A stretch of DNA of 64,000 bases from an uncultured Clostridia bacterium (GCA_944377365.1 CALWEQ010000010.1:70455-134454), one strand, 5' to 3'; shown: positions 17,543 through 60,380, counted from the first letter of the stretch. The notes: generated by a model from the sequence alone, not told the origin. Made by a program: numbers and translations.

Positions 17543-17965
17543 TTATTTTTTTGAATTGAGATAATCCTGTAAGATAATTTGCGCTGCTACTTTATCCAAA
17601 ATTTTTTTTCTTTCTTGCCATGGCATCTTTGCTTCTTTTAATATTTCCTCTGCTTCCAAAGAGGAATATCTTTCGTCGAAATAATGGACTTGTAACCCAC
17701 TTCTTTCTTTCAGTTTTTTGCCAAACTCACGTGTAAGCAAAGCTCTTTCTCCTCCCGAACCGTCTGAGTTTAGAGGCAAGCCGATAATGATTTTGGTGGC
17801 GCATTGCTTTTGAATAAGGTTTGTTAAATATTCTATGTCCTTTTCTATCGTTGACCTTTCATATACTTCATAAGCAGAAGCGATTGTCCCCGTTAGATCG
17901 GAAAAAGCAATCCCTATTCTTCTGTCGCCATAGTCTAGACTAATATATCTTTTGGACTCAATCAT
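17543..17965 (-). CDS. ruvX: putative pre-16S rRNA nuclease / Holliday junction resolvase-like YqgF
   Basis: ISLDYGDRRIGIAFSD...IIGLPLNSDGS motifs. Start ambiguous between the tandem ATGs at 17968 and 17965. No SD. Confidence 0.85.
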   Translation of the reverse strand: MIESKRYISLDYGDRRIGIAFSDLTGTIASAYEVYERSTIEKDIEYLTNLIQKQCATKIIIGLPLNSDGSGGERALLTREFGKKLKERSGLQVHYFDERYSSLEAEEILKEAKMPWQERKKILDKVAAQIILQDYLNSKK

Positions 17966-17972
17966 CATTTTT

Positions 17973-18002
17973 ATTATAATCAATAACAAAAAAGAAAGTC
18001 AA
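17973..18002 (-). promoter_or_regulatory. promoter abutting the ruvX start (leaderless candidate)
   Basis: TTGACT (18002-17997), 18 nt, TATAAT (17978-17973), then AAAA and ATGATG. Confidence 0.5.
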
Positions 18003-18010
18003 ACAATTTG

Positions 18011-20521
18011 TTAACATTCCAGCAAATTTTTGCCAAAATTTAATTTTATAGGAAAAGGAACACTTAAATTTAACCAGTCCTCCATACCTTCGTGTAAAAT
18101 TTTCTGCACCATGTTTTGTTCACCTGGATAAACATCCAAAATAAGTTCATCGTGTATTTGTAAAATGAGTTGTGATTTTAGTGAATATTTTTTAAGCAGA
18201 TCGAAGACTTTTAACATGCTAAATTTTATTATATCTGAAGCTGTGCCCTGCAACGGCATGTTCATAGCAACGCGTTCTCCAAACGCTTGCAAGTTTTTGT
18301 TTGAAGATGACAATTCAGGAATGTGACGAATTCGACCATATTTAGTTTTTATATAGCCGTTTGCTCTTGCGAAAGCAATGTTGTTGTTTGAAAATTCTTT
18401 TACCTTTGGATATCTTGTGTAATATGAATCAATGTATTCTTGTGCGCTTTGACGCGAAACTTTTATGTTTTGAGATAATCCATAAGCGCCAATGCCATAA
18501 ATCACCCCAAAGTTTACAGCCTTTGCCTCTCTTCGCATTTTTGGTGTTACTTGTTCAGGTTCAACATGAAAAATCATGCAAGCAGTTTGAGTGTGTATGT
18601 CTTTGCCTTGTCTAAAAGTTTCGATGAGTTTTTCCTCGCCCGACATCTCAGCAAGCAATCTTAGCTCTATTTGACTGTAATCAGCACTAGCAATTTCACC
18701 GCCCTCAAATTTTGATATGAAAATCTTTCGTAAACTTACTGTGTCATTGTCGTTTGCAGGAATATTTTGTAAATTTGGGTCAGAACTTGACAATCTTCCA
18801 GTGCTTGTTAATGTTTGATTAAAATTCGTGTGGATTATACTTCCTTTTTCATCGCAAATGCTTTTATAAACATTGACATAGGTTGACTTTAATTTTTGAT
18901 ATTTTCTAAATTCAATTATTTTTTCAACAATCGGATGAGCGAACCTTAATTCTTCTAAAACATCAATGCCAGTTGATCTCTTTTTGTTTTGCCAAGCATT
19001 AAGTCCCAATTTGTCAAACAAGATTTCGGCTACTTGCTTTGGAGAATTTATATTGAATTCTTCACCTGCAAAGTCGTAAATTTGTTGAGTTAGGTCAATA
19101 ATTTTTTTTGAATATTCTTTGTCAAGCTCATTTAAACTCTTTTCATCAATTTTAAAACCATCTTTTTCCATTTGAAACAGGACGTCACAGAGAGGAAGTT
19201 CTAAATCATAATAAAGGCTTTCAAGCTCCATTGCTTTTAAGTTGTCGAGCAACAACTTTTTTTGTGCAAACCATGTGTTGCAAGGGTTTGTAATTGCTGG
19301 AATTGTTTTCCCCGCATACAAAAGATATGTCGCTATTGACAAATCAAAAAAGTTTTTTAAGCATATATTCATTGATGACAATTTGTGCATATCAGACTTT
19401 GCAGATTTAGTAATTTTTAAAATTGCCTTATTTTCAAAAATTGGTTTTAGTGTCAAAATAAAATCTGTTAAGGTGATAGCTTGAGAAAACATATCAAATG
19501 TTGGGCTTAAATAAAACACTTCGTCATCATTAACTGCAAATTCCATTTTTTCAAAATCATATGCCAAGAAATTTGATATTCTTTTAACAAAATCATCAAG
19601 CTTCTCATTTGAATCAATCAAGATTCTCGTAGATGAATTAATGTTGCCCAAATTAGTTGAATTTGAATTTGCAAAAAGTTCTTGTTTTTTTAACAAGGAA
19701 GAAAAATTATAATATTCAAAAAAATCTTTTACTTCATTTGAAAAAGGAAATTCATAATTACTAAGATTAAAATCCACATCTAGTTGGCAATCTGTTTTTA
19801 TGGTCGCAAGCTGATATGACATAAATGCCATTTGTTTGCCCTGAATAAGTTTTTCTTTCATTTTTCCTGGCACTTTTTCAATATTGTCATACAAATTTTG
19901 AACATTACCAAATTCTTCAAGCAGTTTAACCGCAGTCTTCTCACCTACTCCTGCCACACCAGGAATATTGTCTGATGAATCACCCATTAAAGCTTTTAAG
20001 TCGATGATTTGGCTTGGCGACAATCCGAATTGCTCTTTTAAAGTTTTTGTGTCAATTTTATTTAAAACAGAAACACCTTTCATTGTAAGCCAGACATTCG
20101 TATCTTTGTCAATAAGTTGCAAAAGATCTCTGTCGCCAGACAATATTATTTTTTTGCCTTGAATGTTTTTTGCAATAGTACCAATTATGTCATCAGCTTC
20201 TAAACCTTCTTTTTCAATGACTTGAATTTTCATCAAATTTAAAAGCTTTTTAATTTGCGGAAACTGCTCAATTAATTCTGGCGGTGTCTCTTTTCTCGTT
20301 CCTTTGTAATTTGCAAAAATTTTGTTTCTAAAAGTTTTACGGGCGTGGTCAAAAGCAACAAAAATTTTGTCTGGTTTTTCTTCTAAAATGACTTTTATTA
20401 AAATATTCACGAAACCAAAAATTGCGCCAGAAGGTTTTTGTTCGCTATTAGTCAAATAAGGCAAAGCATAAAACGCTCTGTTTGCCAAACTATTTCCATC
20501 AATTATTAACGACGTTTTCAT
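18011..20521 (-). CDS. polA: DNA polymerase I
   Basis: 836 aa with a 5' nuclease N-terminus (GDSSDNIPGVAGVGEKTA) and Pol A motifs (DYSQIELRLLA, RREAKAVNFGVIYG, QIHDELILD). Confidence 0.95.
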   Translation of the reverse strand: MKTSLIIDGNSLANRAFYALPYLTNSEQKPSGAIFGFVNILIKVILEEKPDKIFVAFDHARKTFRNKIFANYKGTRKETPPELIEQFPQIKKLLNLMKIQVIEKEGLEADDIIGTIAKNIQGKKIILSGDRDLLQLIDKDTNVWLTMKGVSVLNKIDTKTLKEQFGLSPSQIIDLKALMGDSSDNIPGVAGVGEKTAVKLLEEFGNVQNLYDNIEKVPGKMKEKLIQGKQMAFMSYQLATIKTDCQLDVDFNLSNYEFPFSNEVKDFFEYYNFSSLLKKQELFANSNSTNLGNINSSTRILIDSNEKLDDFVKRISNFLAYDFEKMEFAVNDDEVFYLSPTFDMFSQAITLTDFILTLKPIFENKAILKITKSAKSDMHKLSSMNICLKNFFDLSIATYLLYAGKTIPAITNPCNTWFAQKKLLLDNLKAMELESLYYDLELPLCDVLFQMEKDGFKIDEKSLNELDKEYSKKIIDLTQQIYDFAGEEFNINSPKQVAEILFDKLGLNAWQNKKRSTGIDVLEELRFAHPIVEKIIEFRKYQKLKSTYVNVYKSICDEKGSIIHTNFNQTLTSTGRLSSSDPNLQNIPANDNDTVSLRKIFISKFEGGEIASADYSQIELRLLAEMSGEEKLIETFRQGKDIHTQTACMIFHVEPEQVTPKMRREAKAVNFGVIYGIGAYGLSQNIKVSRQSAQEYIDSYYTRYPKVKEFSNNNIAFARANGYIKTKYGRIRHIPELSSSNKNLQAFGERVAMNMPLQGTASDIIKFSMLKVFDLLKKYSLKSQLILQIHDELILDVYPGEQNMVQKILHEGMEDWLNLSVPFPIKLNFGKNLLEC

Positions 20522-20527
20522 ATTATG

Positions 20528-20555
20528 ATTTTAACACAAAAAAGAGTAAATTCAA
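20528..20555 (-). promoter_or_regulatory. promoter abutting the polA start (leaderless candidate)
   Basis: TTGAAT (20555-20550), 16 nt, TGT-TAAAAT (20533-20528), 6 nt, ATG (20521). No SD. Confidence 0.5.
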
Positions 20556-20817
20556 AATAAAACTAAGTTCTTTCCTTTTGTTTAAGAAATTAAATGAAGA
20601 CTTTTTAAAATTTTAAATATTATAAACTTGTTACAGCGTTAGAAAATTTTGCTTTAAAAATTAACATAATTCTTATTAATAGAGCATATCAAAAATTTGT
20701 TGTAAAAGCATTTAATGAACATTTGTTTATGTTTAAATTAAGATTTATGTATGACAAACCCAACATAATACAACATATTGTGTCTATTATGGAATAATAT
20801 TTCAAACATGTAGCAAT

Positions 20818-20844
20818 TTAAAAAAAGCCTGCTTTTAAGCAAGC
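20818..20844 (-). terminator. terminator with the stop codon of the 96-aa gene in its loop
   Basis: GCTTGC/GCAGGC stem (one G-U pair), loop TTAAAA containing TAA, then T7. Confidence 0.6.
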
Positions 20845-21125: not shown

Positions 21126-22192
21126 TCAGCCACCTTTTTGTTTTTCTTTTCAACTCTTTCAATTTTTTGTTCAAATTTTAAAAGTTTCTTTTCGTTTCTA
21201 GCACGCTCTTTTTCTTCTTTTTCTTTTTCTTTTTCTAATTTTAATTGTTGCTTTTTTAAGGTAATCAAACTTTTGTCTTTTTTTACTTTACTTCTTTTAA
21301 CTTTGCTTTTTGTCTTCTTTTTGCGTCTTTTTATTGCAAGCTTTTTGCTTCCATCTTCTGGCATACTTTCAAGCAAACAATCTGGATTTGCAAACATATC
21401 TTTCCAAACTCTAAGCGACTTTGCAAAGTAGAAACCGTCTGCTACCCTTTCATCCATTGTAATTCCTAGGTTCATGACTTTTCCAAGTTTTAATTCCTTG
21501 TTTTTTTCAACTACTGGCGCAATTTTTTCCTTCCCCATTGCAACAAACAAACTGCAATTTCCAAACTCATACAAGTGGTGAAAAATTGCATCGTTTTTTA
21601 TTGATTTTAGGTTGGTTAAAAAGGCGCTACAGTGAAAGCAACTTGCTTCTATTAAAGATTTTGGCATCATGTTGTGTCTATCTAGCCAGCCAACAATTTT
21701 TAGTGCAAGTCGAAACAACCAATTTGGAAGTTTGCCAAATGAATCAGCTTTGTCAGTAGTGCCGTACACCGAGTCAGGTTTTATGTTTTTTGCTATTATA
21801 TCTTCAACATATGCTTTTACTTCTGACAAACTTTCACGACCAGTAAAATGGAATTTTAAATCAACATCTTCCCCATCGTCTGCAAGTTGTTTTTTTACAA
21901 CCATGCAAATTGATATGTCTTTGTGTTCATAAATAACGTTGTGATTGATAAAATAGTTAAGTTTTGGTCTTAGATATAATAGGCGAACAAGAGATGTTAG
22001 CATTATGTCCGTGTAAGTATAATGGTTTCCCAATTTGCGTTGTCGCAAAATAAATTCATCCATCGGCTCACATCTGATTTGATCCATGAAATAATTTGAA
22101 GCGCCAATTCTGGTTGGCATGAAAAATGGTGCAGCCTTTGTTACTGCATCTAAATTTTTTACTTTTATTCCATCACTTCTTTTACTAAACAT
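21122..22192 (-). CDS. 2-oxoacid dehydrogenase E2/CAT-fold acyltransferase-like protein with a K/E-rich tail
   Basis: The first ~280 aa resemble an E2 catalytic domain. The signature region reads GITMDERVADGFYFAKSL, where DHRxxDG is expected. The C-terminal 75 aa are K/E low complexity. SD AAAGGAG. Confidence 0.45.
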   Translation of the reverse strand: MFSKRSDGIKVKNLDAVTKAAPFFMPTRIGASNYFMDQIRCEPMDEFILRQRKLGNHYTYTDIMLTSLVRLLYLRPKLNYFINHNVIYEHKDISICMVVKKQLADDGEDVDLKFHFTGRESLSEVKAYVEDIIAKNIKPDSVYGTTDKADSFGKLPNWLFRLALKIVGWLDRHNMMPKSLIEASCFHCSAFLTNLKSIKNDAIFHHLYEFGNCSLFVAMGKEKIAPVVEKNKELKLGKVMNLGITMDERVADGFYFAKSLRVWKDMFANPDCLLESMPEDGSKKLAIKRRKKKTKSKVKRSKVKKDKSLITLKKQQLKLEKEKEKEEKERARNEKKLLKFEQKIERVEKKNKKVAE

Positions 22193-23459
22193 CTTTTTCT
22201 CCTTTAAATTTCTTTCTAATTAAATTTTTTTCTTTCCCATTGTTTTTAGGTTTGTAATACACATGGTCTTTTATTGCATCAGGCAGATATTGTTGTTTGC
22301 AGTAACCACCATAATCATGCGGATATTTGTACTTTCCATGACCATCCTTGTTTGTGGTAGGATGATTTTTTAGGTGATTAGGCACAAAGTCATCTCGAAG
22401 AGATACGGCATCCTTTTTTGCTTCTTCCATAGCAATTAGAACAGAATTTGATTTTTCCGCTTCACAAGCATAAATAATAGCATGGGACAAATTTAACATA
22501 GCTTCAGGAAGACCTATTTTTTCAATAGCCGTAAATGCAGCTATTGCAAGCAAAAGCGCGTTTGAATCTGCCATACCAATATCTTCTGAACAATGAGCAA
22601 TTAATCTTCTTGCTATTATAAGTGGGTCACATCCTGACTGAATAAGGCGTTGAGAGTAAAACAATGCTGCGTCCGTGTCTGACCCTCTAATGCTTTTACA
22701 AAATGCAGAGAGAAGATCAAAATGCATTTGAGTGTCAACTGATAAAGGTTTCTTGTCAAGACATTCTGCTATTACATTTTCATCAATGACAATTTTGTTG
22801 TTTTTGTCTAACGGGGTCGTGTTCGCTGCAAGCTCAAGGGCATTTAATGCGGTTCTTGCATCACCTCCACTGACATCAGCTAAAAAATCCATCGCTTTTT
22901 CTGTCATAATAATTGGAAGATTGCCAAGACCATTTTCTTTGTCTAAAATAGCTCTCTTTAATGTCTTTTTTATATCTTCAATTTTTAAAGGTTTTAGTTC
23001 AAACACACGGCAACGAGATACTATTGCACGAGTCATAGAAGTGAAAGGATTTTCTGTTGTAGAACCTATAAAAAATATATGCCCCTTTTCAATCGCCTCC
23101 AAAACGCAATCACTTTGACTTTTGCTCCAACGATGACATTCGTCTAAAAGTAAATATGTGTCTTTGCCTAAAAGCATTTTGTCTTTTTTTGCTTTTTCTA
23201 TGACAGCTTTTGCGTCCGCAACACCAGATGTAACTGCATTTAATTTTTCTATGTTGGCATTAAGAGATTCTGCAATAAGATAAGCTAATGTTGTCTTGCC
23301 TGTTCCAGGAGGACCATATAAAATCATGCTTCCAACATTACCAAATTCGATTGCTCTACGCAAAACTTTGCCTTTGCCAAAAATATGTTCTTGTCCCACA
23401 AAATCGTCCAAGGTTTTTGGACGCATTCTCTGCGCTAGTGGTATTTTCAATTCACTCAT
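22185..23459 (-). CDS. rarA: replication-associated recombination protein A (AAA+ ATPase)
   Basis: RMRPKTLDDFVGQEH, Walker A GPPGTGKTT, Walker B LLLDECHR, MgsA C-terminal domain. Confidence 0.9.
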   Translation of the reverse strand: MSELKIPLAQRMRPKTLDDFVGQEHIFGKGKVLRRAIEFGNVGSMILYGPPGTGKTTLAYLIAESLNANIEKLNAVTSGVADAKAVIEKAKKDKMLLGKDTYLLLDECHRWSKSQSDCVLEAIEKGHIFFIGSTTENPFTSMTRAIVSRCRVFELKPLKIEDIKKTLKRAILDKENGLGNLPIIMTEKAMDFLADVSGGDARTALNALELAANTTPLDKNNKIVIDENVIAECLDKKPLSVDTQMHFDLLSAFCKSIRGSDTDAALFYSQRLIQSGCDPLIIARRLIAHCSEDIGMADSNALLLAIAAFTAIEKIGLPEAMLNLSHAIIYACEAEKSNSVLIAMEEAKKDAVSLRDDFVPNHLKNHPTTNKDGHGKYKYPHDYGGYCKQQYLPDAIKDHVYYKPKNNGKEKNLIRKKFKGEKDV

Positions 23460-23465
23460 GCAATT

Positions 23466-23494
23466 ATTATATCACAAGCTGAACTATATTACAA
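23466..23494 (-). promoter_or_regulatory. promoter abutting the rarA start (leaderless candidate)
   Basis: TTGTAA (23494-23489), 17 nt, TGA-TATAAT (23471-23466), 6 nt, ATG (23459). No SD. Confidence 0.55.
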
Positions 23495-23593
23495 CTATTT
23501 ATACAAAAAATTTTTGCAAACAAGTAAAACAACGTTTTTGCCTTTAAAACAAAGAGAATAAGCAAGATTTTAGATATTTTTTTAAAATTATAA

Positions 23594-23635
23594 TAAAAAA
23601 GTGCTAAATGCCTTTATTTATAAGGCATTCAGCAC
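23594..23635 (-). terminator. strong terminator whose stem includes the last codons and stop of the 397-aa gene
   Basis: 14-bp stem GTGCTGAATGCCTT/AAGGCATTTAGCAC, 7-nt loop, T6. Confidence 0.75.
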
Positions 23636-24797
23636 TATTTTTTAGCTCTTTAAATGTTAAATAATTTTTTCCGATAAATTTTGTGTTTCCGATTTGAATG
23701 TAACCTTGCTCACTCCCAAAAATTACATTGATTTTTTTCCATACTCTTCCATCAAATATTTGCAATGACGAGATGTTTTCTAAACCCATAAAAACAAAAT
23801 TTTTTTCATTTTGTACTAAATATTGTTCTTTTAATCTTGTATATTCGATTTCGCTTTTTTCATCATTTTCTCCTTTAAGCCAAGATAAATATATTCTTTC
23901 TGGTAAAGTTTGATTTAAAAGTCGTTGCTCGTTTTTATTCTTTGATTTTATTCTTAAGTTAAATCTTTCATTAATTTGTCTGTCAGCTTCAGCCATAAAC
24001 ATTTCCATTTCGCCTTGATTTGATAGAACAAATTTTTGATCTCCATAATTAAAGAAAAAAACTTTTTTCTGCTTAGGTTTTAAACATACTTCACATTGAA
24101 TGTTGACACATGCATGTGTGCAGTTTTCTACGCCGTCAATACAAGAAAAAACAAATCGCGATTGTTTGCAATTAAAGTTAAAATATGTTTTATCGCAAGA
24201 AAACAAATTGGTAATTTCAACACATGAATACTTTTTTTGAAAATAGTAATACCCTTTTTCTAATGGCACATTGATTGTAAACGTTATCTTTTTAACAGAG
24301 TTTGACAGGTTTATAAATTCTACATAATAGCTTCTCCCACACATAACAAATTCTTTAATGTAATATTTAATTTCATCTTTTATCCCTGTTGATAATAAAT
24401 AAAAATCATGTAAACACATGTTCTGTCGATAACCATTGATTTCAATGTAATTTTCTTCTGCCTTTAAATGGTAGCCAGAATTAGATTTATAATTTACATT
24501 TAATTTGTTAACATCAGGATTGTTTTTTAAAACTATTGCACCAAGTTTTTTTTGTGCTCGTTTGTTTTCTTCAGTAATAATTAGATTAAAGTCACAAACT
24601 GTTTTCGCACGCTGAAAACATTTAAATATTGGGCGAGAAAGTTCTTTTTCGAATTTAAACACAGGCAATGATGGGTCAATGCCGAGTTTTATAAGTTTGT
24701 CAAAATCTATGTCAGTGCTGTAAAGAATTGGAGCATGAAATCTTAATCGATTGAGTATTAAGTTTGTCATATTAAATAAATAATCTCTTTTCTTCAT
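23604..24797 (-). CDS. hypothetical protein, 397 aa, Cys-rich central region
   Basis: Long open frame with no recognisable motif and no SD before the ATG. Starts 20 nt after the rnpB terminator. Confidence 0.55.
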   Translation of the reverse strand: MKKRDYLFNMTNLILNRLRFHAPILYSTDIDFDKLIKLGIDPSLPVFKFEKELSRPIFKCFQRAKTVCDFNLIITEENKRAQKKLGAIVLKNNPDVNKLNVNYKSNSGYHLKAEENYIEINGYRQNMCLHDFYLLSTGIKDEIKYYIKEFVMCGRSYYVEFINLSNSVKKITFTINVPLEKGYYYFQKKYSCVEITNLFSCDKTYFNFNCKQSRFVFSCIDGVENCTHACVNIQCEVCLKPKQKKVFFFNYGDQKFVLSNQGEMEMFMAEADRQINERFNLRIKSKNKNEQRLLNQTLPERIYLSWLKGENDEKSEIEYTRLKEQYLVQNEKNFVFMGLENISSLQIFDGRVWKKINVIFGSEQGYIQIGNTKFIGKNYLTFKELKNSAECLINKGI

Positions 24798-24815
24798 AAT
24801 TTAATTCTTGACAAA

Positions 24816-24845
24816 ATAAAAAAAAGCAAACATAAAACGTTTGCT
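24816..24845 (-). terminator. terminator after RNase P RNA
   Basis: AGCAAAC/GTTTGCT stem, then T8-9 on the minus strand. Confidence 0.7.
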
Positions 24846-24850
24846 AAATT

Positions 24851-25183
24851 CAGTCAAACATAAGCCGAGTTCTGTGTCATGTGGTCATCTATCTAGGCCT
24901 AATGTTGCCAATAGGCTCAAGCGTTGCTTTTGGAAGACGTGAAAGACAGCACATTGTCTTCGCTTAAACTTGCATCGAGTGGGGTTTACAGTGACGAAAG
25001 ATGTTTCCACCTTTCCGGTAAGCTCTTGCCTCACCTTTCCATCCTTACCCTTGCGGGCGGTTTATTTCTGTTGCACTTTCCTTAGAGTCGCCTCCACCGG
25101 TCGTTAGCCGGCACTCCGTCTTTTGATGCCCGGACTTTCCTCATTTTGCTTTTACAAGCAAACCGCGACCACAAGTTTGACTG
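24851..25183 (-). ncRNA. rnpB: RNase P RNA, bacterial type A
   Basis: Minus strand contains GAGGAAAGTCCGGGC, GTGCAACAGAAATAAACCGCC, GGTAAGGATGGAAAGGTGAGGCAAGAGC, GTAAACCCCAC and ACAGAACTCGGCTTAT. P1 pairs CAGTCAAAC with GTTTGACTG. Confidence 0.9.
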
Positions 25184-25221
25184 ACCCAATCATTTTAACA
25201 TAAAATGAGGTTTATGTCAAC

Positions 25222-38247: not shown

Positions 38248-38276
38248 TTGCAATATTAAAAAAAAACTGCTATTAT
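38248..38276 (+). promoter_or_regulatory. promoter abutting the DUF4364-like gene start (leaderless candidate)
   Basis: TTGCAA (38248-38253), 17 nt, TATTAT (38271-38276), 6 nt, ATG (38283). No SD. Confidence 0.55.
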
Positions 38277-38282
38277 TTATCC

Positions 38283-38843
38283 ATGGAAAATATTATTTCA
38301 GATGAAATCAACAACGAAGAAAAAGTTAGAACAAAATTGACTTTATTATTTTTTATGGAAAAAATGGAAATTCCTCTTACAAAAAACTCAATTTTAGATA
38401 TTTGCTGTATTGAAAACGATTGGTTAAGTTATATGGATTGTGTGGCAATTATAGCGGAACTATGCGACACTGGTTTTATTTACAAGGCACAAAATGCTGA
38501 AAATGACGAACTTTATTCAATAACTTATTCAGGAAGAGAATGCTTAGCTCAACTATATTTAAGAGTGCCATATGAGTTACGTGAAAGAATGGCAGAATAC
38601 GTAAAATTAAACAAACTTTCTGTAAAGACATCACAAGAATATACTTCAACTTATGTAAAAAATGAAGACGGATCTTATACTGTTACATTACGCATATATG
38701 AACCAATGATCTCAACTCCAATGTTTGAAATTAAAATCAAAGCTCCTTCTAGACAAAGCGCAATAGAAGCTGATCAAAAATGGAAACGGCAAGCACCAAA
38801 TGTTTATGAGTATGTTTATGAAAATCTCGTAAACACAGATTAG
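38283..38843 (+). CDS. DUF4364-like protein (putative winged-helix)
   Basis: 186 aa. The N-terminal LTLLFFMEKMEIPLTKNSILDI...YSITYSGRECL pattern recalls DUF4364 of Clostridia. Assignment from memory. Confidence 0.45.
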   Translation: MENIISDEINNEEKVRTKLTLLFFMEKMEIPLTKNSILDICCIENDWLSYMDCVAIIAELCDTGFIYKAQNAENDELYSITYSGRECLAQLYLRVPYELRERMAEYVKLNKLSVKTSQEYTSTYVKNEDGSYTVTLRIYEPMISTPMFEIKIKAPSRQSAIEADQKWKRQAPNVYEYVYENLVNTD

Positions 38844-43085: not shown

Positions 43086-43595
43086 TTAGAAATCTTTTTT
43101 TCTAACACTGTTGTCCATTTGATTAATTTTTTTCAAATAAATATTTGGTGATTTCCAATAAATATAACATAACCATAAAATCATATTTAAAAAATAAGTT
43201 ATTTGAACAGTTAAAGCAGATATTTGTAATGCAGATTTAGCGCTCATGCTGTCAACAAATATTGTAACAAACATGCTAATAATCAAAATTAAAAACGAAC
43301 AGATTGTTTCAGTAACAATCATGTTGATTACGTGTGTCAGATCCATCATCTTTTGGTCTGATTCTTCAATAAAAATCTTTACGCTTTCTTCGTCATTATA
43401 AGTGAGTTGCAAAGCTTTCAATTTTGTTTGCAAAACTTGTCTTCTTTTAGATGACAAGATAGGAAGTATAAATAGAAGCAATGCGATGTTTACTGCTATA
43501 AAACTAAAAGTTGCAGTTTGTATAAATTCTGCTTGCTGTGTGTTGAAAACAATCGACTCAATAAGAAATATGGTTATAAGAAAAAAATATAACAC
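43086..43595 (-). CDS. hypothetical membrane protein, 169 aa
   Basis: Four hydrophobic segments. GTG start without an SD, so the start is uncertain. Confidence 0.4.
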   Translation of the reverse strand: MLYFFLITIFLIESIVFNTQQAEFIQTATFSFIAVNIALLLFILPILSSKRRQVLQTKLKALQLTYNDEESVKIFIEESDQKMMDLTHVINMIVTETICSFLILIISMFVTIFVDSMSAKSALQISALTVQITYFLNMILWLCYIYWKSPNIYLKKINQMDNSVRKKDF

Positions 43596-43926: not shown

Positions 43927-44014
43927 GCAGAGGTGTCAGAGCGGTCTAATGTGCACGCTTGGAAAGCGTGTGTGGTGAGAGCCACCTCGGGTTCGAATCC
44001 CGACCTCTGCGCCA
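43927..44014 (+). tRNA. tRNA-Ser (anticodon GGA), encoded CCA
   Basis: Acceptor GCAGAGG/CCTCTGC. Anticodon stem CACGC/GCGTG with loop TTGGAAA. Long variable arm. T-arm TCGGG-TTCGAAT-CCCGA. Discriminator G then CCA. Confidence 0.9.
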
Positions 44015-44770: not shown

Positions 44771-45850
44771 TCAAGAGGCGCTGAATGTTTTATCAATCCT
44801 TCCGCCACCTAAACAGATGCCTTCATCATCATATAAAACAGCATATTGGCCTGGCGCAACAGCTCTCTGAGGCTGACAAAAATCTATTTTAATGTTTTTT
44901 TCGTCAATAATTTTTATCTTTGCTTTTTGATCAGGCTGACGGTAGCGAATTTTGACAAAACAGTCGAATTCCTTTTCCTTTGGCATTTCTGTGATATAAT
45001 TCATATCCACTGCAAACAATCCATCACAATACAAAAGTTTGTCATCACCTTGTGCCACTATTATTTGATTTTTTTGCATATCTTTTTTGACTACAAACCA
45101 TCTGCCGTTGTCCTTCCCTGCCTGTCCTCCGATGTTAAGACCCCGTCTTTGCCCTAAAGTGTAAAACATAGCTCCTTCGTGCTTGCCAATGACGTTTCCA
45201 TTTGTGTCTACAATTTCTCCAGGTTGTGCTGGTAAATAATTTTTTAGAAAATTTTTAAAATTTCGCTCACCAATAAAACATATGCCTGTCGAGTCTTTTT
45301 TTTCTGCGGTAGACAAGCCAAGTTCCTTTGCAATCTTTCTAACTTCTGTTTTTCTTATGTCCTGTAATGGAAAAATTACACTTGCAAGCTGAGATTGCGA
45401 AAGTTGATTTAAAAAATAAGACTGATCCTTGCTTTCATCCGTCGCTTTAGCTAAATAAAATTTTCCATTTCGCTCTATTTTCTTCGCATAATGACCTGTT
45501 GCAATCATATCTGCGCCCAATTTTTTTGCTTGATCTAAAAATGGGCCAAATTTAATTTCACGATTACATAAAACATCGGGATTGGGAGTTCTACCATTTT
45601 TGTGTTCATCTAAAAAATACTTAAAAACTCTGTCATAATATTCTTTAGCATAATTAACTGAAAAATACGGTATGCCGATTTTTGAACATACTCTTTTGAC
45701 ATCTTCAAAGTCTGCTTCTGCTGTACATTCACCATTTGGTTCTTGCCAATTAACCATAAATAGCCCAATAACTTCGTGACCCTGTTTTTTTAGTAAATAT
45801 GCAGCAACTGAAGAATCGACTCCTCCACTAACTCCTACAACAATCCTCAT
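44771..45850 (-). CDS. mnmA: tRNA 2-thiouridine(34) synthase
   Basis: VGVSGGVDSSVAA PP-loop, CNREIKF, and catalytic Cys in DSTGICFIG. Confidence 0.95.
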   Translation of the reverse strand: MRIVVGVSGGVDSSVAAYLLKKQGHEVIGLFMVNWQEPNGECTAEADFEDVKRVCSKIGIPYFSVNYAKEYYDRVFKYFLDEHKNGRTPNPDVLCNREIKFGPFLDQAKKLGADMIATGHYAKKIERNGKFYLAKATDESKDQSYFLNQLSQSQLASVIFPLQDIRKTEVRKIAKELGLSTAEKKDSTGICFIGERNFKNFLKNYLPAQPGEIVDTNGNVIGKHEGAMFYTLGQRRGLNIGGQAGKDNGRWFVVKKDMQKNQIIVAQGDDKLLYCDGLFAVDMNYITEMPKEKEFDCFVKIRYRQPDQKAKIKIIDEKNIKIDFCQPQRAVAPGQYAVLYDDEGICLGGGRIDKTFSAS

Positions 45851-46329
45851 TTTTTCTCCTCTTCTGGCAAAGAAACAGGAATTTTAAACTTTCCTGTGCA
45901 AACAAAAATTATATCCAAAATCCACATGACTCCATAAATTCCAACAAACAAACCAAACAACTGAATTAACAAACCATCCCAAACATTGACAAGATAAGCG
46001 TTTAAAACAACACTAATTGTAAGTAAGGCGAAACCTATTAAGTAAAAGATGCCTCTCTGCCAGCGTTTAACATAAAAATAACCTCCGCCAAACAGGCCGA
46101 ATAAAACTGTAAACAAAATTAGCTTCCATTTTTTTAAATCAGGTGGAACTTGATTGACGTACAAAACCGCGTCTTTTTCTTTGTTTTTAAGCCTTTGCCA
46201 ACCTGCCTTGTTTGTCGCATTTTCCATACGCGAAAAAACCAGTCCGCACTCTGGACATCGAAGCTGACTTAGTAAACACTTTGCCTCACATCTTGGGCAC
46301 TTTTTTGTGTCACGACCTAACATAGACAT
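45847..46329 (-). CDS. zinc-ribbon plus TM2-like membrane protein
   Basis: CPRCEAKC...CPECG N-terminus, then FGLFGGGYFYVKRWQRGIFYL and two or three TM helices. Confidence 0.55.
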   Translation of the reverse strand: MSMLGRDTKKCPRCEAKCLLSQLRCPECGLVFSRMENATNKAGWQRLKNKEKDAVLYVNQVPPDLKKWKLILFTVLFGLFGGGYFYVKRWQRGIFYLIGFALLTISVVLNAYLVNVWDGLLIQLFGLFVGIYGVMWILDIIFVCTGKFKIPVSLPEEEKK

Positions 46330-46335
46330 ATGTTA

Positions 46336-46364
46336 ATTTTAATTAATTTAAAAATAATTGTCAA
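46336..46364 (-). promoter_or_regulatory. consensus promoter abutting the start of the zinc-ribbon/TM2 gene (leaderless candidate)
   Basis: TTGACA (46364-46359, overlapping the cyclase stop), 17 nt, TAAAAT (46341-46336), 6 nt, ATG (46329). No SD. Confidence 0.6.
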
Positions 46365-47875: not shown

Positions 47876-48319
47876 ATGGACAGAAATGAACTTTTACAAA
47901 ATTATGTTAATGCAATTTATCAAAACATAAATGCAGGTTTACAGGCTATTGAAGACATATTACCAAAAATACAAGATGACAATTTAAAAAATCTTGTTGC
48001 CGAAATACAAGACAAATATTATTCGCTTTCTAAAGAATGTGAAGTTTATGCAAAAAGTGAAGACATTAAAGGCATAAAAGATAATAGTTGGCTTGAAAAA
48101 GTAAAAATGTGGATGAGTGTAAACATGTCCACTATGACAGACAAATCTAATAGAAAAATATCTGAACTATTGATATTGGGCTCTTTTATGGGATATATAA
48201 CTTGCATAAAAGATGCATCCGACCATAAAAACATCTCCATTGAACTCGACGAAATTTTAGAAAAATTAAAAAACTTTCAAAAATCAAATATCGAAAGTCT
48301 TTTACCATATTTAAGCTAA
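47876..48319 (+). CDS. hypothetical helical protein, 147 aa
   Basis: SD AAAGGAGA. No motif recognised. Confidence 0.55.
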   Translation: MDRNELLQNYVNAIYQNINAGLQAIEDILPKIQDDNLKNLVAEIQDKYYSLSKECEVYAKSEDIKGIKDNSWLEKVKMWMSVNMSTMTDKSNRKISELLILGSFMGYITCIKDASDHKNISIELDEILEKLKNFQKSNIESLLPYLS

Positions 48320-49152
48320 ATGTCAAGTTGACTTAGTTTGGTAGTAATAGGGTGCTTCAAACAAAGAGAAAGCACCTTTTTTTCTGTCAATATAACGGTT
48401 TTACCGTTGTCCTGCACCAGACAAAAAATAGTCAACTTCGCGCTATCAACAGCCCTCATCAATTCACCAATACTTGACTGTTCATTCACAGCAAGAAATT
48501 TTACTGAGGAAAAATTTTTAATCTTTTTCTTAAAAACATCTGTTAGCTGATATTCGCCTTCCATTTTACTTTCTATCATACCTCCCAATAAAAATACGAT
48601 CATAAGCGCAAAGGTCGGATTGTAATTGACAAAACAAGTGACAACAAAACATATGGCAAAAACAAAACAAAAAACTATGTTGACAAAACGCACGACTTTT
48701 AAAGCTTTTTTTCTTGAAATTTTTTCGCTTAAGAGTCCAACCATCACCCTACCGCCATCTAATGGATAAGCAGGCAGAAGATTGAATAATGCTAGCCCCA
48801 TGCTTAAATCCACAAACTCAGACGTGTAAAAATATGTTTCAGGAAAAATCCACCAGTTTGCCACAATAACAATGCAAAATAATATATTTGAGATCGGCCC
48901 AGCGAGTGCAATTTTTATTTCATCTTTACCAAGAAATTTAGAATCTTTGTAGTTTAAGGCGACACCATAAGGTGCTAAATAAAAACTTGATAATTTATAT
49001 TTCAATTTTTTTGCTACAAGATAATGCCCCATCTCATGAACTAGTAAACAAAATATTAAAATAAAAAAAAGCAATGTTTGTCCAGTGACAGCAAACCAAA
49101 TAAAGACTAAATAAAAGCTTGGATGAATAGGAATTTTTTTTAATATCCGCAT
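48316..49152 (-). CDS. spoIVFB: M50 site-2 metalloprotease, SpoIVFB-like
   Basis: HEMGHYLVAKK, NLLPAYPLDGGRV, and a C-terminal CBS-like module. Size and layout match SpoIVFB. Confidence 0.65.
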   Translation of the reverse strand: MRILKKIPIHPSFYLVFIWFAVTGQTLLFFILIFCLLVHEMGHYLVAKKLKYKLSSFYLAPYGVALNYKDSKFLGKDEIKIALAGPISNILFCIVIVANWWIFPETYFYTSEFVDLSMGLALFNLLPAYPLDGGRVMVGLLSEKISRKKALKVVRFVNIVFCFVFAICFVVTCFVNYNPTFALMIVFLLGGMIESKMEGEYQLTDVFKKKIKNFSSVKFLAVNEQSSIGELMRAVDSAKLTIFCLVQDNGKTVILTEKKVLSLCLKHPITTKLSQLDI

Positions 49153-49946: not shown

Positions 49947-50696
49947 CTAATTCACCTCGTTTGAAATAATGTGTATTTGATCAAATATACCAGCCTGCTC
50001 TACTCTGACTGCTTGTAATTTTAACAAATCCAATAATGCTAAAAAGATGTTAATCATTTCACTCTTTGTCATGTCGCTAACAAACAAGTCTTCAAATTCA
50101 AATCTTTTATGCTCGCGTGCATAGTCTCTAATAGAAACAATTTTTTCAGCCACTGTAAACCTGTCTTTAACAATTTTCTTAGGAGGTGGAGCTTCTTTTT
50201 GTCGTAAGCTCTGTTTTGCTAAAAGATTTGCAAAGGCATCTAAAAGTTTGTCAAGCACCATGTCCTTTACAACTATTTTAACCTTTTCAGTTTCTTCTCC
50301 AGGTGCTCTGTAAAACTTGTTTATATCCTCCCTATCTTTTAACGAAACGCCAATTTCCTTAAACAATTCATATTCCTTCAATCGTCTAAGCAAAAGGGCT
50401 TCACTGTCCTCTTCTTCCTCATTTTCATTCTCTTCTAAAACAGGCAACAAGTGCTTTGATTTAATTTCGACAAGTGTTGCAGCAACAGTTATAAATTCAC
50501 TAGCCCTTTCCATATCAACCGAAGAAAGATCTTGCATGTATTCAAGATATTGTTCAGTCACATCAGCAAGTTTTACTTCCATGATGTCTAATTTTGCAGA
50601 TTTAATAAGATGCAACAAAAGATCGAGTGGTCCCTCGAAATTTTCTAATTTAAAACGGACTTTGTCATCTAAAAAATTGAGCTGTTCATTTTCCAT
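49947..50696 (-). CDS. scpA: segregation and condensation protein A
   Basis: FEGPLDLLLHLIK motif, kleisin layout. Precedes scpB. Confidence 0.9.
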   Translation of the reverse strand: MENEQLNFLDDKVRFKLENFEGPLDLLLHLIKSAKLDIMEVKLADVTEQYLEYMQDLSSVDMERASEFITVAATLVEIKSKHLLPVLEENENEEEEDSEALLLRRLKEYELFKEIGVSLKDREDINKFYRAPGEETEKVKIVVKDMVLDKLLDAFANLLAKQSLRQKEAPPPKKIVKDRFTVAEKIVSIRDYAREHKRFEFEDLFVSDMTKSEMINIFLALLDLLKLQAVRVEQAGIFDQIHIISNEVN

Positions 50697-50704
50697 ACTT
50701 TTTT

Positions 50705-50732
50705 AGTATATCAAAATAAAAATATTTTTCAA
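50705..50732 (-). promoter_or_regulatory. promoter close to the scpA start (near-leaderless candidate)
   Basis: TTGAAA (50732-50727), 16 nt, TGA-TATACT (50710-50705), 8 nt, ATG (50696). No SD. Confidence 0.45.
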
Positions 50733-50758
50733 AGAAAAAACCCGAAAATTTCGGGCTT
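50733..50758 (-). terminator. terminator after the DD-carboxypeptidase gene
   Basis: CCCGAA/TTCGGG stem, then T6 on the minus strand. Confidence 0.7.
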
Positions 50759-50763
50759 TTCTA

Positions 50764-51985: not shown

Positions 51986-52585
51986 TTAAATTACCAAAAT
52001 CACACTTGAAGAAAATACAAATAATAAAATTGTTTCAATCAAATTGAATAAGATAATAATTAGATAAAAAGATAACAAAATTTTAAAAACGCTTCCCCTT
52101 CCATATCCAAAACATAAAGAACGAGATTTGGTGAGCAATGCATAGAGCAATACAAAACCGATAAGCATACCGATTTGACAAGGAATAACAATGATTATTG
52201 CATCGATAACACCAGACAGCCCAAAGCTTGAGCATAGGATAGAAATGTTAAACCCTAAAAGATAAGCACGAAAACCTATTAAAGCAACTCCCAACGGGAA
52301 AAGCCATTTGTTTAAAGATAAAACAAAAATTATGCCTGTTACTATTGTTATTGAAAACGTCCTTGAAAAAAATGCTCCAAATCCATCTCCTGCGCCTTTA
52401 AACGACAGCAAATATTCATCACCTGGATATGAATAAGGATTTGAAGAAAACAAAACAATCCCCGCAACAAAACAAATCAAAACAATAACTGAAATCAGCC
52501 ATATCCTTCCCTTACATTCCGAAAACTTTGATGCCAAGTTCATCTTAAATCGTGAAAATAAGGATCTTGATTTAAAATTAGTCAT
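51986..52585 (-). CDS. polytopic membrane protein, SpoIIM-like
   Basis: 199 aa, 5 TMs. The pattern IGFRAYLLGFN...VIPCQIGMLIG loosely parallels SpoIIM. Confidence 0.4.
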   Translation of the reverse strand: MTNFKSRSLFSRFKMNLASKFSECKGRIWLISVIVLICFVAGIVLFSSNPYSYPGDEYLLSFKGAGDGFGAFFSRTFSITIVTGIIFVLSLNKWLFPLGVALIGFRAYLLGFNISILCSSFGLSGVIDAIIIVIPCQIGMLIGFVLLYALLTKSRSLCFGYGRGSVFKILLSFYLIIILFNLIETILLFVFSSSVILVI

Positions 52586-52643
52586 ACACTAATTTACGAG
52601 CATTTTCTACAAAAAAGAACATCTTTGTTTATTTGATTCGGAG

Positions 52644-56636: not shown

Positions 56637-59227
56637 TTTTCCTCCTTTGCCTTTGAAGTGAGATCGACTAAAATCTCAAAGGCATGCATAGGTGATATGC
56701 GATTTGGGTCTAAGTCCTTTACTATGTTGTAAATTTCATTTTTAACTTTGTTGTCTTCTTGAATAACTGGCTGATCTTCTATGCTTAACTCTAAGTTTAA
56801 GTTTTGTTTTTCAAGAGTTCTACTAATTTCTTTCGCTCTTAATAAAACCTCTTTTGGCAGGCCAGCCATTCTAGCCACTTCAATTCCAAAGCTTTTATTT
56901 GCACCACCTCTTACTATTTTTCGTAAAAATAAAACCTGATCCATTGTTTCTTTAACAAGGATTTTGTAATTCTTTACTCCAGTAAGCATATTTTCAAGAT
57001 TTGTTAGTTCGTGATAATGAGTTGCAAACAATGTTTTTGCTGGCAAGTTTTTTGCTATATGTTCAACAACGCTCCATGCAATAGACAACCCGTCAAAAGT
57101 AGAAGTCCCCCTTCCTATTTCATCAAGTATAATCAAGCTGTAATGAGTCGCGTTTGCAAGAATTGTAGCAACTTCGCTCATTTCAACCATAAACGTACTT
57201 TGTCCAAATGCCAAATCGTCGCTAGCACCGACACGCGTAAATATTCTGTCAGTAATCGCAATTTCAGCTCTTTCAGCAGGCACAAAGCTCCCTATATGAG
57301 CCATGAAAGTTATCAAAGCAACTTGACGCATATAAGTGCTTTTCCCAGCCATATTAGGCCCTGTAATAATCATAATTTGATCGTCTGGCCTCGATAAAAA
57401 TGTGTCATTTGCAATAAACGTGCTTCCACCAAGAAAAGCTTCAACAACGGGATGTCTTCCTTGTTCTATTTTTATTTTATCACCTTTTTCAAGCAAAACA
57501 GGTCTAACATAATTGTTTTTGACGGCGACCTGGGCTAATGAATAAATTACATCTATTCTGCTGATAGCATCTGCTGTTTCAAGCAAAGGTTCCACCAAAG
57601 TTAGTAGATATTTTTTTAACTCAGTAAAAATGACATCTTCTAGTTGTATTGCCTTTTCTTCGGCACCCTGCAACTGCCTTTCTAGATTTGCTAAATCTTC
57701 CATTACAAATCTTTCATTATTTGCAACTGTTTGTTTGCGCTTGTACATGATAGGTACTTTGTCAATTTCTCTTTTATTAACTTCTATGCAATAGCCATAC
57801 ACTCTGGATTTTATAATCTTAAGACTTTTAATTCCCGTTTTTTGCCTCTCTTCTTCTTCAAGTTGATCAATCCATTTTTTTGCATTGGATTTCATTTCTC
57901 GTAACTGGTCAAGTTCTGTGTTAAAGCCATCTTTTATATAACCACCAGTCTTAGTCAAATACGGAGCATTATCATCTATGGCCTTGTTTAAAAGAGCAAA
58001 AAGATCTTCAAATCCATTTATCATCTTTTGTTCGTCATCAAAATCTTTGCAAGAAGCTAAAATAGATTTTAGATTAGGCAAATATTCTAAAGAACTTTTC
58101 AACGACAACAAATCCTTTGGCGTGATTGAGCCATAAGCTATGCGCCCTGCAAGACGTTCGATATCGCCAATTTTAGACAACATTTGACCAAGTTGATCGC
58201 GTTTTACTGTGTTGTTAAATAGAGTTTCTACCTTGTCCAGCCTTCTGTTTAGTTTATCACGTGATTGCAAAGGATGGTCGAAAATGTAACGGAATTTTCG
58301 TGCTCCCATACTTGTTTTTGTTTTGTCTAAAAGCCAAATTAAAGACCCATATCTTTTTCTTTCACGAATTGTTTCAACTAATTCGAGGTTGCGTCTAGCA
58401 GTAGTGTCAAGTTGCAGAAAATCACTGTTTTTTACAAGATTAAGCTTCTTTATGCTGTCTATTTTACGTTTTTGTGTTTCAACTAAATATTCAATAAGTG
58501 CGCCAGCAGAAAGCGTGACTTCTCGTTTGTTTTCTAATTCGTAAACCCTCTTGTAATTTTCTCCAAATTGTCTTTGTAAATTCTCATCTGCTCTTTCAAA
58601 ATGAAAAGCCCAATCATAATAAATTTGTGCTTTGGGCAAAAAACCCTGTTTTTGAATTGGAAGTGAATCATAAAGATTTTTGGCTTCTTCATTTGCAATC
58701 ACTTCACTAGGGCCGACACGCGTCAAAATGTCTGTCAAAGAATTGGACAAATTTTCACTTACATCCTCTACTTCAAAAAGACCCGTAGTTATGTCAGAAT
58801 ATGCTACTCCTAGCTTCTCTCCAGCTTTTGCTAAACATAAGATGAAATTGTTTTTTGCACTTTCAAGCATTTCCTCTTCAGTAACAGTCCCAGCCGTGAC
58901 AACTCGAGAAATAAATCTTTTCATCATCCCCTTTTGGCCAGGTTTTAGTTCTGCTTGTTCGCATATAGCTACTTTTCTTCCTGTAGCAACGATTTTTGCT
59001 ACGTAGACTTGCGCAGAATGTGCAGGAACGCCACACATAACGTTTCCACCTCTTTGAGTCAAAGTCAAATCTAAAAGCTTGCTCATTTCAACAGCATCTT
59101 CAAAAAACATTTCATAAAAGTCGCCAAGTCTAAAAAAAAGCACACAGTCAGGATGCTGTTCTTTAAGAGTTTTATATTGCGCCATCATGCCCTTAGGCTC
59201 GACAATTTTTGCTATTTCATCTATCAT
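56633..59227 (-). CDS. mutS: DNA mismatch repair protein MutS
   Basis: FFRLGDFYEMF mismatch-binding motif, Walker A GPNMAGKST, STFMVEM, DEIGRGTST. Confidence 0.95.
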   Translation of the reverse strand: MIDEIAKIVEPKGMMAQYKTLKEQHPDCVLFFRLGDFYEMFFEDAVEMSKLLDLTLTQRGGNVMCGVPAHSAQVYVAKIVATGRKVAICEQAELKPGQKGMMKRFISRVVTAGTVTEEEMLESAKNNFILCLAKAGEKLGVAYSDITTGLFEVEDVSENLSNSLTDILTRVGPSEVIANEEAKNLYDSLPIQKQGFLPKAQIYYDWAFHFERADENLQRQFGENYKRVYELENKREVTLSAGALIEYLVETQKRKIDSIKKLNLVKNSDFLQLDTTARRNLELVETIRERKRYGSLIWLLDKTKTSMGARKFRYIFDHPLQSRDKLNRRLDKVETLFNNTVKRDQLGQMLSKIGDIERLAGRIAYGSITPKDLLSLKSSLEYLPNLKSILASCKDFDDEQKMINGFEDLFALLNKAIDDNAPYLTKTGGYIKDGFNTELDQLREMKSNAKKWIDQLEEEERQKTGIKSLKIIKSRVYGYCIEVNKREIDKVPIMYKRKQTVANNERFVMEDLANLERQLQGAEEKAIQLEDVIFTELKKYLLTLVEPLLETADAISRIDVIYSLAQVAVKNNYVRPVLLEKGDKIKIEQGRHPVVEAFLGGSTFIANDTFLSRPDDQIMIITGPNMAGKSTYMRQVALITFMAHIGSFVPAERAEIAITDRIFTRVGASDDLAFGQSTFMVEMSEVATILANATHYSLIILDEIGRGTSTFDGLSIAWSVVEHIAKNLPAKTLFATHYHELTNLENMLTGVKNYKILVKETMDQVLFLRKIVRGGANKSFGIEVARMAGLPKEVLLRAKEISRTLEKQNLNLELSIEDQPVIQEDNKVKNEIYNIVKDLDPNRISPMHAFEILVDLTSKAKEEK

Positions 59228-60345
59228 CAGTTTGCCTCTTTTTGTATTTTCTTTTCGAGAGCTAAAAGCTTGTTTACCCTTTGTCTTTTTATCTCAAGTG
59301 GAATTTGACCTTCCATTTTTGCAGCAACAGTGCCTTCTCTTGGAGAATACATAAATGCAAATATTCCGTCATATTTTACTTGTTCGACCAAACTTAATGT
59401 GTCTAAAAATTCACTTTCTGTTTCAGTTGGAAAGCCGACAATAAAATCTGAAGTGATTTTTACATTAGGTATTTTTGCTTTTATTTTTGATATAATTTCT
59501 AAGTAATGTTCTCTGGTGTATTTTCGATTCATAAGTTTTAAAATACGATTGTTGCCACTTTGAGCTGGCAAATGAATTTCTTTTAATATTTTGTCATTTG
59601 TTGCTATTTCGTTTATGAGCTGATCTGTTATATCTTTGGGATGTGAAGTCATAAATCCTACTTTGAAATCGCCTTCAATCGACGTGATTAGTTTTAACAA
59701 CTCTGAAAAAGTGACTTTTGGAGAAAGATCTTTACCATATGAATTGACATTCTGCCCAAGCAATGTTATTTTGTTATACTTACCGCTTTTTACAATATCC
59801 TTTACTTCTTTTAAAATGTTTTCAACAGAACGAGATTTTTCTCTTCCACGCACATAAGGCACAATGCAATAAGTGCAAAAATTGTCACAACCCTGCATAA
59901 TGTTTACCCAGGCATTTTGACCACTTGTCCTGTTGTAACCTTTTTCTTCATCAAGCGAACCTTCCTGCCAAAGCTCAAAAACTTTTTTGTTTTTAGCTTC
60001 ATTTATGTACTGTCCAATTTTATGTAGATTAAACGTGCCTAAAATTATGTCTACAAAAGGAAACTTTTGTTTAAAAACTTTTGCTGTCTCCTCTTTTTGT
60101 GTCATACAGCCACAGACTGCAATAATTAGGCTAGGACGCAACTTTTTAAGTCTTTTAAGCGCCCCGACATTGCCAAAAACTCGCTCTTCTGCCCCCTCAC
60201 GAATTGCACAAGTGTTGAAAACTATGACGTCAGCTTCTTCCCGCTTTTCTGTGAATGTGTAACCCATTTCTTCTAAAATAAAAGAAATCTTTTCTGACTC
60301 ATGAACATTCATTTGGCAACCGTAAGTAACTATGTGATATAACAT
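59227..60345 (-). CDS. miaB: tRNA methylthiotransferase MiaB-like, lacking a C-terminal TRAM domain
   Basis: TYGCQMNVHESE, a radical-SAM CDNFCTYC cluster, and the ending ...RQRVNKLLALEKKIQKEAN right after the radical-SAM core. The stop overlaps the mutS ATG (TGATG). Confidence 0.8.
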   Translation of the reverse strand: MLYHIVTYGCQMNVHESEKISFILEEMGYTFTEKREEADVIVFNTCAIREGAEERVFGNVGALKRLKKLRPSLIIAVCGCMTQKEETAKVFKQKFPFVDIILGTFNLHKIGQYINEAKNKKVFELWQEGSLDEEKGYNRTSGQNAWVNIMQGCDNFCTYCIVPYVRGREKSRSVENILKEVKDIVKSGKYNKITLLGQNVNSYGKDLSPKVTFSELLKLITSIEGDFKVGFMTSHPKDITDQLINEIATNDKILKEIHLPAQSGNNRILKLMNRKYTREHYLEIISKIKAKIPNVKITSDFIVGFPTETESEFLDTLSLVEQVKYDGIFAFMYSPREGTVAAKMEGQIPLEIKRQRVNKLLALEKKIQKEAN

Positions 60346-60351
60346 AGAGAT

Positions 60352-60380
60352 AGTATACAGCAAAATTAAACATTTTGCAA
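60352..60380 (-). promoter_or_regulatory. promoter abutting the miaB start (leaderless candidate)
   Basis: TTGCAA (60380-60375), 17 nt, TATACT (60357-60352), 6 nt, ATG (60345). No SD. Confidence 0.55.

Follow-up and report, generated by a model that had tools for sequence, protein, structure and literature searches.

The DNA analyzed here is a 64-kb stretch from an uncultured Clostridia bacterium (GCA_944377365.1, CALWEQ010000010.1:70455-134454; 64,000 nucleotides, hereafter the window, with positions counted from its first letter). It contains eight genes in which a promoter-like sequence abuts the start codon, and which we discuss as predicted leaderless genes. The GC content of the window is 33%, and nearly all of its genes lie on the minus strand. 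They include nusA, rimP, rseP, tsf, rpsB, secDF, thrS, ytxC, polA, rarA, a sigma factor gene and ftsY, together with smc, rnc, plsX, ackA, pta, mnmA, scpAB, mutSL, miaA and recA, a gene content that fits Clostridia. Code 11 is in use, as 13 of the 57 genes end in TGA. Among genome records, the nearest are gut metagenome-assembled genomes (MAGs) of uncultured Clostridia/Firmicutes, with 83-84% PolA identity; a MiaB-family homologue at 73% identity is labelled Candidatus Caccovivens (NCBI: Clostridia, Eubacteriales incertae sedis).

A promoter was accepted when each hexamer had at least 4/6 matches and both together at least 9/12, the -10 having A as its second and T as its sixth base; it was considered abutting when the -10 ended 5-8 nt upstream of the start. 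Shine-Dalgarno sequences (SDs) were evaluated by core matches of at least 4 nt and by anti-SD duplex energy. The 57 gene starts were compared with the 2235 other ATGs of the window. For the comparative analysis we used 61 related metagenome or MAG loci (labelled L001 onward), and 86 kb of loci with 51-53% MnmA identity served as outgroup. The sites with a promoter abutting the start are the following:

4886..4923, minus strand, promoter and start of the DnaQ-like gene: -35 TTGACA (4918-4923), 17-nt spacer, -10 TAAAAT (4895-4900), 6 nt, GTG (4886-4888).
17963..18002, minus strand, promoter and start of ruvX: -35 TTGACT (17997-18002), 18-nt spacer, -10 TATAAT (17973-17978), 7 nt, ATG (17963-17965).
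20519..20555, minus strand, promoter and start of polA: -35 TTGAAT (20550-20555), 16-nt spacer, TGt-TAAAAT (-10 at 20528-20533), 6 nt, ATG (20519-20521).
23457..23494, minus strand, promoter and start of rarA: -35 TTGTAA (23489-23494), 17-nt spacer, TGa-TATAAT (-10 at 23466-23471), 6 nt, ATG (23457-23459).
38248..38285, plus strand, promoter and start of the DUF4364 gene: -35 TTGCAA (38248-38253), 17-nt spacer, TGc-TATTAT (-10 at 38271-38276), 6 nt, ATG (38283-38285).
46327..46364, minus strand, promoter and start of the Zn-ribbon/TM2 gene (ZnTM2): -35 TTGACA (46359-46364), 17-nt spacer, -10 TAAAAT (46336-46341), 6 nt, ATG (46327-46329).
50694..50755, minus strand, terminator, promoter and start of scpA: hairpin (50741-50755) with T-run, -35 TTGAAA (50727-50732), 16-nt spacer, TGa-TATACT (-10 at 50705-50710), 8 nt, ATG (50694-50696).
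60343..60380, minus strand, promoter and start of the miaB-like gene: -35 TTGCAA (60375-60380), 17-nt spacer, -10 TATACT (60352-60357), 6 nt, ATG (60343-60345).

Seven of these arrangements had been listed in a preliminary description of the sequence, and all seven were found in place when read directly from the window. The eighth, with its GTG at 4888, was absent from that description. The gap between the -10 and the start codon is of 6 nt in six cases, 7 nt in ruvX and 8 nt in scpA. The preliminary description had also claimed that the seven genes lack an SD, and this holds: none has a core match of at least 4 nt, and their anti-SD energies range from -2.1 to +1.8 kcal/mol.

When the 57 genes are considered together, anti-SD energies are bimodal, with 45 genes at or below -5.8 kcal/mol and 12 at or above -2.7 kcal/mol. 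Abutting promoters are found at 8/57 gene starts vs 16/2235 (0.7%) of the other ATGs (binomial p = 8e-9); 1000 trials in which the 45-nt upstream regions were shuffled yielded 0.77 abutting promoters on average and never more than 5. All eight promoter-abutted starts belong to the 12 SD-less genes and none to the 45 genes with SDs (Fisher 3e-7). The distance from -10 to start is also bimodal: 6-8 nt in the eight genes vs 16-61 nt in promoter-bearing SD-led genes. The coexistence of two initiation modes, proposed earlier, is supported, rimP, secD, yajC and rpmF being SD-led operon heads within the window. In the units headed by the predicted leaderless genes, the downstream genes have SDs. The pattern of group B (Bacteroidetes-type), in which internal operon genes lack SDs as well, does not apply here, as 45 of the 57 genes, internal ones included, have strong SDs.

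The genes concerned were then considered individually. Gene rarA (22185-23459, minus strand) heads a unit with g22192 and g21125, and a terminator-like hairpin (23636-23600) lies upstream of its promoter. The RuvB_N and MgsA domains of RarA confirm the start. Its layout is kept in four loci with diverged spacers (L002, L057, L058 and L060); in L059, rarA has a short leader with an SD instead of a promoter at the start.

Gene polA (18011-20521, minus strand) is separated from the upstream gene by 313 nt. An in-frame stop is located 3 codons upstream of its ATG, and residue 5 is the first of the 5'-3' exonuclease domain. The layout is kept in L001, L002 and L057 (69-84% identity), where a spacer region separates polA from the upstream gene; in L058-L060, where polA adjoins that gene, it is SD-led, as it also is in L003 and L004. 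Within the 313-nt gene-free region upstream of polA (20522-20834, minus strand), a block just after the terminator is conserved in L001 and L002. This block holds two copies of CAATATGTT and might act as a regulator site or encode a small RNA.

Gene ruvX (17543-17965, minus strand) is the putative head of a unit with a DUF1292-like gene, and its promoter is located inside the 45 nt that follow the polA stop, with no terminator between. The preliminary description had left its start at either 17968 or 17965. As relatives have TTG or CTG at the position of the first ATG and keep the second ATG, the start is 17965, 7 nt after the -10, and 17968 was discarded. The RuvX domain begins at residue 7. 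The arrangement TTGAC(T/A/C)-18-TATAAT (TTGGTA-18 in L059), followed after 6-7 nt by ATG or GTG, was found in 6/6 loci (L001, L002 and L057-L060), which span 57-84% PolA identity; no exception was seen among them.

The DUF4364 gene (38283-38843, plus strand) has its promoter within a divergent 92-nt intergenic region. Its layout was found in four loci without exception: L005 (88% identity) and L032, both with 6 nt, and L010 and L008, with 9 nt. Gene ZnTM2 (45847-46329, minus strand) is the putative head of a unit with mnmA, and its -35 overlaps the stop of the upstream cyclase gene. About 25 metagenome loci display TTGAC(A/T)-17/18-TAnnnT-6/7-ATG, with GTG replacing ATG in 4 of them; their spacers are unrelated and protein identity is only 32-58%. 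In L031, ZnTM2 is SD-led.

Gene scpA (49947-50696, minus strand) heads a unit with scpB. The conserved ScpA motif FEGPLDLLLHL precedes every alternative start. Apart from the window, only L054 (94% identity) has the promoter-at-start layout. In L013, L005 and L055, an M50 peptidase gene with its own promoter 6-9 nt before its ATG heads the operon, and scpA follows as an internal, SD-led gene. The M50 peptidase gene is located downstream of scpB in the window (48316-49152, minus strand) and in L054, and upstream of scpA in other relatives (19660-20319 in L055). The changed gene order goes together with the presence, in front of scpA, of a separate terminator-flanked promoter of the predicted leaderless type.

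The miaB-like gene (59227-60345, minus strand) encodes a TRAM-less MiaB-family methylthiotransferase, with UPF0004 from residue 3, and heads a unit that includes mutS, mutL, miaA and more genes. It lies in a short divergent region. The arrangement TTGCAA-17/18-TATA(C/A)T-6-ATG is found, with no exception seen, in L054 (86%), L055 (77%) and L056 (73%, the Ca. Caccovivens MAG).

The eighth gene (3356-4888, minus strand) encodes a 510-aa protein with a C-terminal DnaQ/PolC-type exonuclease domain; for its N-terminal region, no family match was obtained. Its -35 lies inside the last rseP codons and its -10 overlaps the rseP stop TAA. The junction TTGACA-17-TAAAAT-6-(ATG/GTG) is kept in L051, L052, L053 and L061 (73, 60, 47 and 43% protein identity), two of which use ATG, and the homologues are all of about 510 aa. 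This case is more ambiguous than the other seven, since the rseP coding sequence also constrains the -35 and a gap of only 9 nt follows the rseP stop, so that coupling is possible.

Taking these loci together, hexamers and start distance are conserved while spacer and discriminator bases diverge. Further start-abutting promoters precede ftsK, tadA and other genes in the relatives. An unbiased histogram of promoter-to-start distances was built on the clade loci, a genome-wide one having been suggested as a check; the distance to the first start of a long open reading frame (ORF) peaks at 6-7 nt. No start-abutting events at 6-7 nt were found in the 86 kb of outgroup loci. Judging from the conservation among orthologues, the promoter-to-start geometry appears to be under selection. 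The predicted leaderless trait would characterize a lineage of relatives of Ca. Caccovivens among the low-GC gut Clostridia, and it turns over: polA and scpA have a start-abutting promoter only in those relatives in which they stand apart from the upstream operon.

With ruvX corrected, the start codons are taken as the true ones, being supported by Pfam boundaries, upstream in-frame stops, homologue lengths, which match the chosen starts, and orthologue N-termini. The possibility that the true starts lie downstream and are preceded by SDs had been raised at the outset; a search for SDs at alternative starts yielded no credible candidate. For rarA, TTG 23363 was considered, as it is preceded by a weak AAGG, and rejected because the AAA+ domain of RarA would be truncated. 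Public gene calls misplace several starts in the relatives: among L054, L057 and L058, the call for a miaB-like orthologue has 7 residues in excess, that for ruvX begins in L057 at an ATG located within the TATAAT box, and that for ruvX in L058 begins about 10 codons too far downstream.

The transcriptional context was examined next. Five of the genes are clear heads of their own units: scpA and rarA, with terminator hairpins directly upstream of their promoters, the DUF4364 and miaB-like genes, in divergent regions, and polA, with its 313-nt gap. The window also provides an internal calibration of the promoter geometry, namely rnpB, which encodes RNase P RNA:

24846-25184, minus strand, RNase P RNA gene (class A, 264.7 bits): near-perfect promoter 25192-25220, TTGACA-17-(TGt)TAAAAT; terminator 24845-24825.

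Position 1 of the Rfam model falls 7 nt after the -10 of this gene. At the Rfam gathering threshold, only the RNase P RNA and one tRNA were detected, and no riboswitch or leader RNA was found upstream of any candidate.

The proposal that these genes are leaderless, already made in the preliminary description, is supported by the geometry statistics, by the confinement of abutting promoters to SD-less genes and by their conservation. We consider it probable, with transcription starts predicted from promoter geometry, that the genes are leaderless transcription units. The proposed promoter is of the housekeeping, sigma-A type, with a near-consensus -35, a spacer of 16-18 nt and a -10 often preceded by TG, and its -10 ends 6-8 nt, mostly 6 nt, upstream of the start codon. 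With the -10 so placed, RNA polymerase would start at the first base of that codon (A for ATG, G for GTG) or within 1-2 nt of it, and the resulting mRNA would have neither a 5' untranslated region nor an SD. Leaderless mRNAs are translated via direct binding of the 5'-terminal start codon by ribosomes and initiator tRNA, and the same direct binding would be expected for these genes. The downstream genes of the units and highly expressed heads, such as rpmF, rpsB, secD and rimP, use canonical strong SDs.

Some observations weigh against leaderless transcription. Three of the genes, ruvX, ZnTM2 and the DnaQ-like gene, lie 45, 31 and 9 nt, respectively, after co-directional genes without a terminator between, and therefore read-through, leadered transcripts are also likely for them. 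A second promoter-like match, TTGACA-17-TAATAT, is located 56 nt upstream of the miaB-like gene, and the 8-nt gap of scpA could leave a leader of 1-2 nt. Promoter-like matches are moreover frequent in DNA of this composition (75-90 per 20 kb vs 66-68 expected). The first 45 nt do not fold less stably in the predicted leaderless genes (mean -4.2 kcal/mol vs -3.1 kcal/mol in the other genes); this comparison revealed no unstructured 5' end and was uninformative.

The read-through configuration of ruvX, ZnTM2 and the DnaQ-like gene and the alternative promoter of the miaB-like gene are also what would be expected if the transcripts, produced by read-through or from farther promoters, were leadered and translation began independently of SDs through unstructured A/U-rich upstream sequences, the hexamers being incidental or minor internal promoters. 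The upstream regions are indeed very A/T rich. However, such leadered transcripts leave unexplained why the -35, the -10 and their exact 6-7 nt distance are conserved amid diverged surroundings, why terminators immediately precede the scpA and rarA promoters, and why 45 other genes of the window keep strong SDs; we regard this explanation as improbable.

Translational coupling or reinitiation between abutting genes should be considered above all for the DnaQ-like gene, whose promoter might be a by-product of the rseP C-terminus (…VDILHFIL*) and its TAA. There, the -35 is encoded by conserved V/I-D-I codons, the -10 contains the rseP stop, and the 9-nt gap between both genes is invariant in six lineages. 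Nevertheless, TTGACA-17-TAAAAT-6-start scores 11/12, its geometry is identical to that of the other seven sites, and synonymous positions are invariant inside the hexamers but variable in the spacer. Only the DnaQ-like gene starts within a few nt of an upstream stop, the other seven being 31-313 nt away or divergent; coupling is inapplicable to the six genes with 45-313 nt gaps or in divergent regions, ZnTM2 (31 nt) falling in neither group. Coupling thus appears unlikely as well. The least tenable alternative, that of chance matches in AT-rich DNA combined with mis-called starts whose true SD-bearing counterparts lie downstream, draws on the abundance of promoter-like matches but, given the enrichment at real starts (p ~1e-8), the lack of any downstream SD-bearing start other than the rejected TTG 23363, and the domain boundaries and orthologue N-termini that fix the starts, it appears already largely refuted and is very improbable.

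Regarding the functions of the predicted leaderless genes, the preliminary description had pointed to an enrichment in DNA metabolism. Within the window, 5/8 leaderless heads vs 6/49 other genes belong to this category (p = 0.005); this comes from one window only, and it is diluted by the relatives, as these add leaderless genes not related to DNA (the M50 peptidase gene, tadA and others). The enrichment is hence only suggestive. A low level of expression may plausibly be what the predicted leaderless genes have in common.

The four remaining SD-less starts (24797, 52585, 60414 and 43595) fail the promoter criterion, having no acceptable -35. The 397-aa ORF 23604-24797 (minus strand), conserved in relatives, starts about 20 nt after the T-run of the rnpB terminator; it has no Pfam or NCBIfam match, no SD and no convincing promoter, with only AAGAAT 6 nt before the ATG. 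Gene 51986-52585 (minus strand), an SD-less unit head for a 199-aa membrane protein, has the conserved -10-like hexamer TAAATT at a distance of 5 nt from its ATG and no recognisable -35. The class A penicillin-binding protein (PBP1) gene (60414-62639, plus strand), also an SD-less unit head, shows a conserved -10-like hexamer as well, CATATT 7 nt before the ATG, again with no recognisable -35; in L056, CATAAT stands at 6 nt. The 169-aa ORF 43086-43595, with a GTG start and no SD, is doubtful as a gene, and none of the fetched loci contains a homologue. It is adjacent to the gene for tRNA-Ser(GGA) (43927-44014, plus strand), which stands alone where 613 nt separate two minus-strand genes. The SD-less starts of this group are possible -10-only leaderless genes. 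Elsewhere in the window, a T-box leader (15497-15682, minus strand; 81 bits, E = 1e-17) lies upstream of thrS, and was missed at the default threshold because its score is below the Rfam gathering score of 93.

The predicted architecture is the one modelled by GeneMarkS-2 for its group C, where the Pribnow box lies at 6-8 nt from the start codon and leaderless operons make up 25-50% of the total (PMC6028130). That group includes Actinobacteria and Deinococcus-Thermus, and only 3.4% of Firmicutes were assigned to it (PMC6028130). Group C genomes using code 11 have been reported to be almost all of high GC (bioRxiv 2022.07.25.500264), and 717 of 4930 human-microbiome species-level genome bins have already been classed as group C, without taxonomic breakdown. 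As in group C, the genes predicted here as leaderless lack an SD, and SDs are present on internal genes and on leadered unit heads. Unlike in group C, the host is a 33% GC, code-11 Clostridia lineage, and the promoters have a strong -35 and often an extended -10, not just TAnnnT. By prediction, about 8 (up to 12 if all SD-less ones are counted) of about 35 putative unit heads in these 64 kb are leaderless, the group C share of 25-50% being a genome-wide value.

Leaderless genes of Firmicutes were described by Zheng et al. (2011) in Lactobacillales (Lactococcus/Streptococcus, Oenococcus/Leuconostoc) and Mycoplasma, Clostridia being unmentioned (PMC3160421). As in the low-GC Firmicutes of that study, the genes considered here have a -10 of the TAtAAT type, located about 10 nt from the start and often with TG in front of it, and they form a predicted leaderless minority beside dominant SD use; the predicted fraction of 8/57 (about 14%) is near the top of the Firmicutes range of 2.4-16.6% (PMC3160421). 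Within Clostridia, 6 leaderless genes have been found among 1646 mapped transcription starts of C. difficile, and 11 leaderless ORFs among about 1100 in Acetobacterium bakii. The present case shares with both a Clostridia host and a preference for ATG at the 5' end. It differs in that leaderless starts in those species are mapped and rare, whereas about 8 of about 35 putative heads are here predicted leaderless from sequence.

As the architecture matches the group C model and prior reports, the mechanism is known; the new part is the host lineage and the comparative detail. Leaderless initiation is well established, and what we describe is not a new mechanism but its predicted occurrence in a bacterial group in which it is uncommon. 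We tentatively propose, while holding it somewhat short of an even chance, that leaderless initiation may serve about a quarter to a third of the transcription units of this lineage, as the evolutionary default for new units of low expression. In this proposal, a family-level group of low-GC, code-11 Clostridia of the human and animal gut would display the group C lifestyle otherwise tied to high-GC phyla, and new unit heads such as polA and scpA would carry an ATG-abutting promoter and not an SD leader. In practical terms, gene callers based on SDs misplace the starts of such genes in MAGs. Genes polA and scpA, predicted to be leaderless in some lineages and SD-led in others, provide a series for studying how initiation modes interconvert. 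If confirmed, these predictions would mean frequent leaderless expression in a low-GC Clostridia lineage, where the mapped starts of cultured relatives show almost none.

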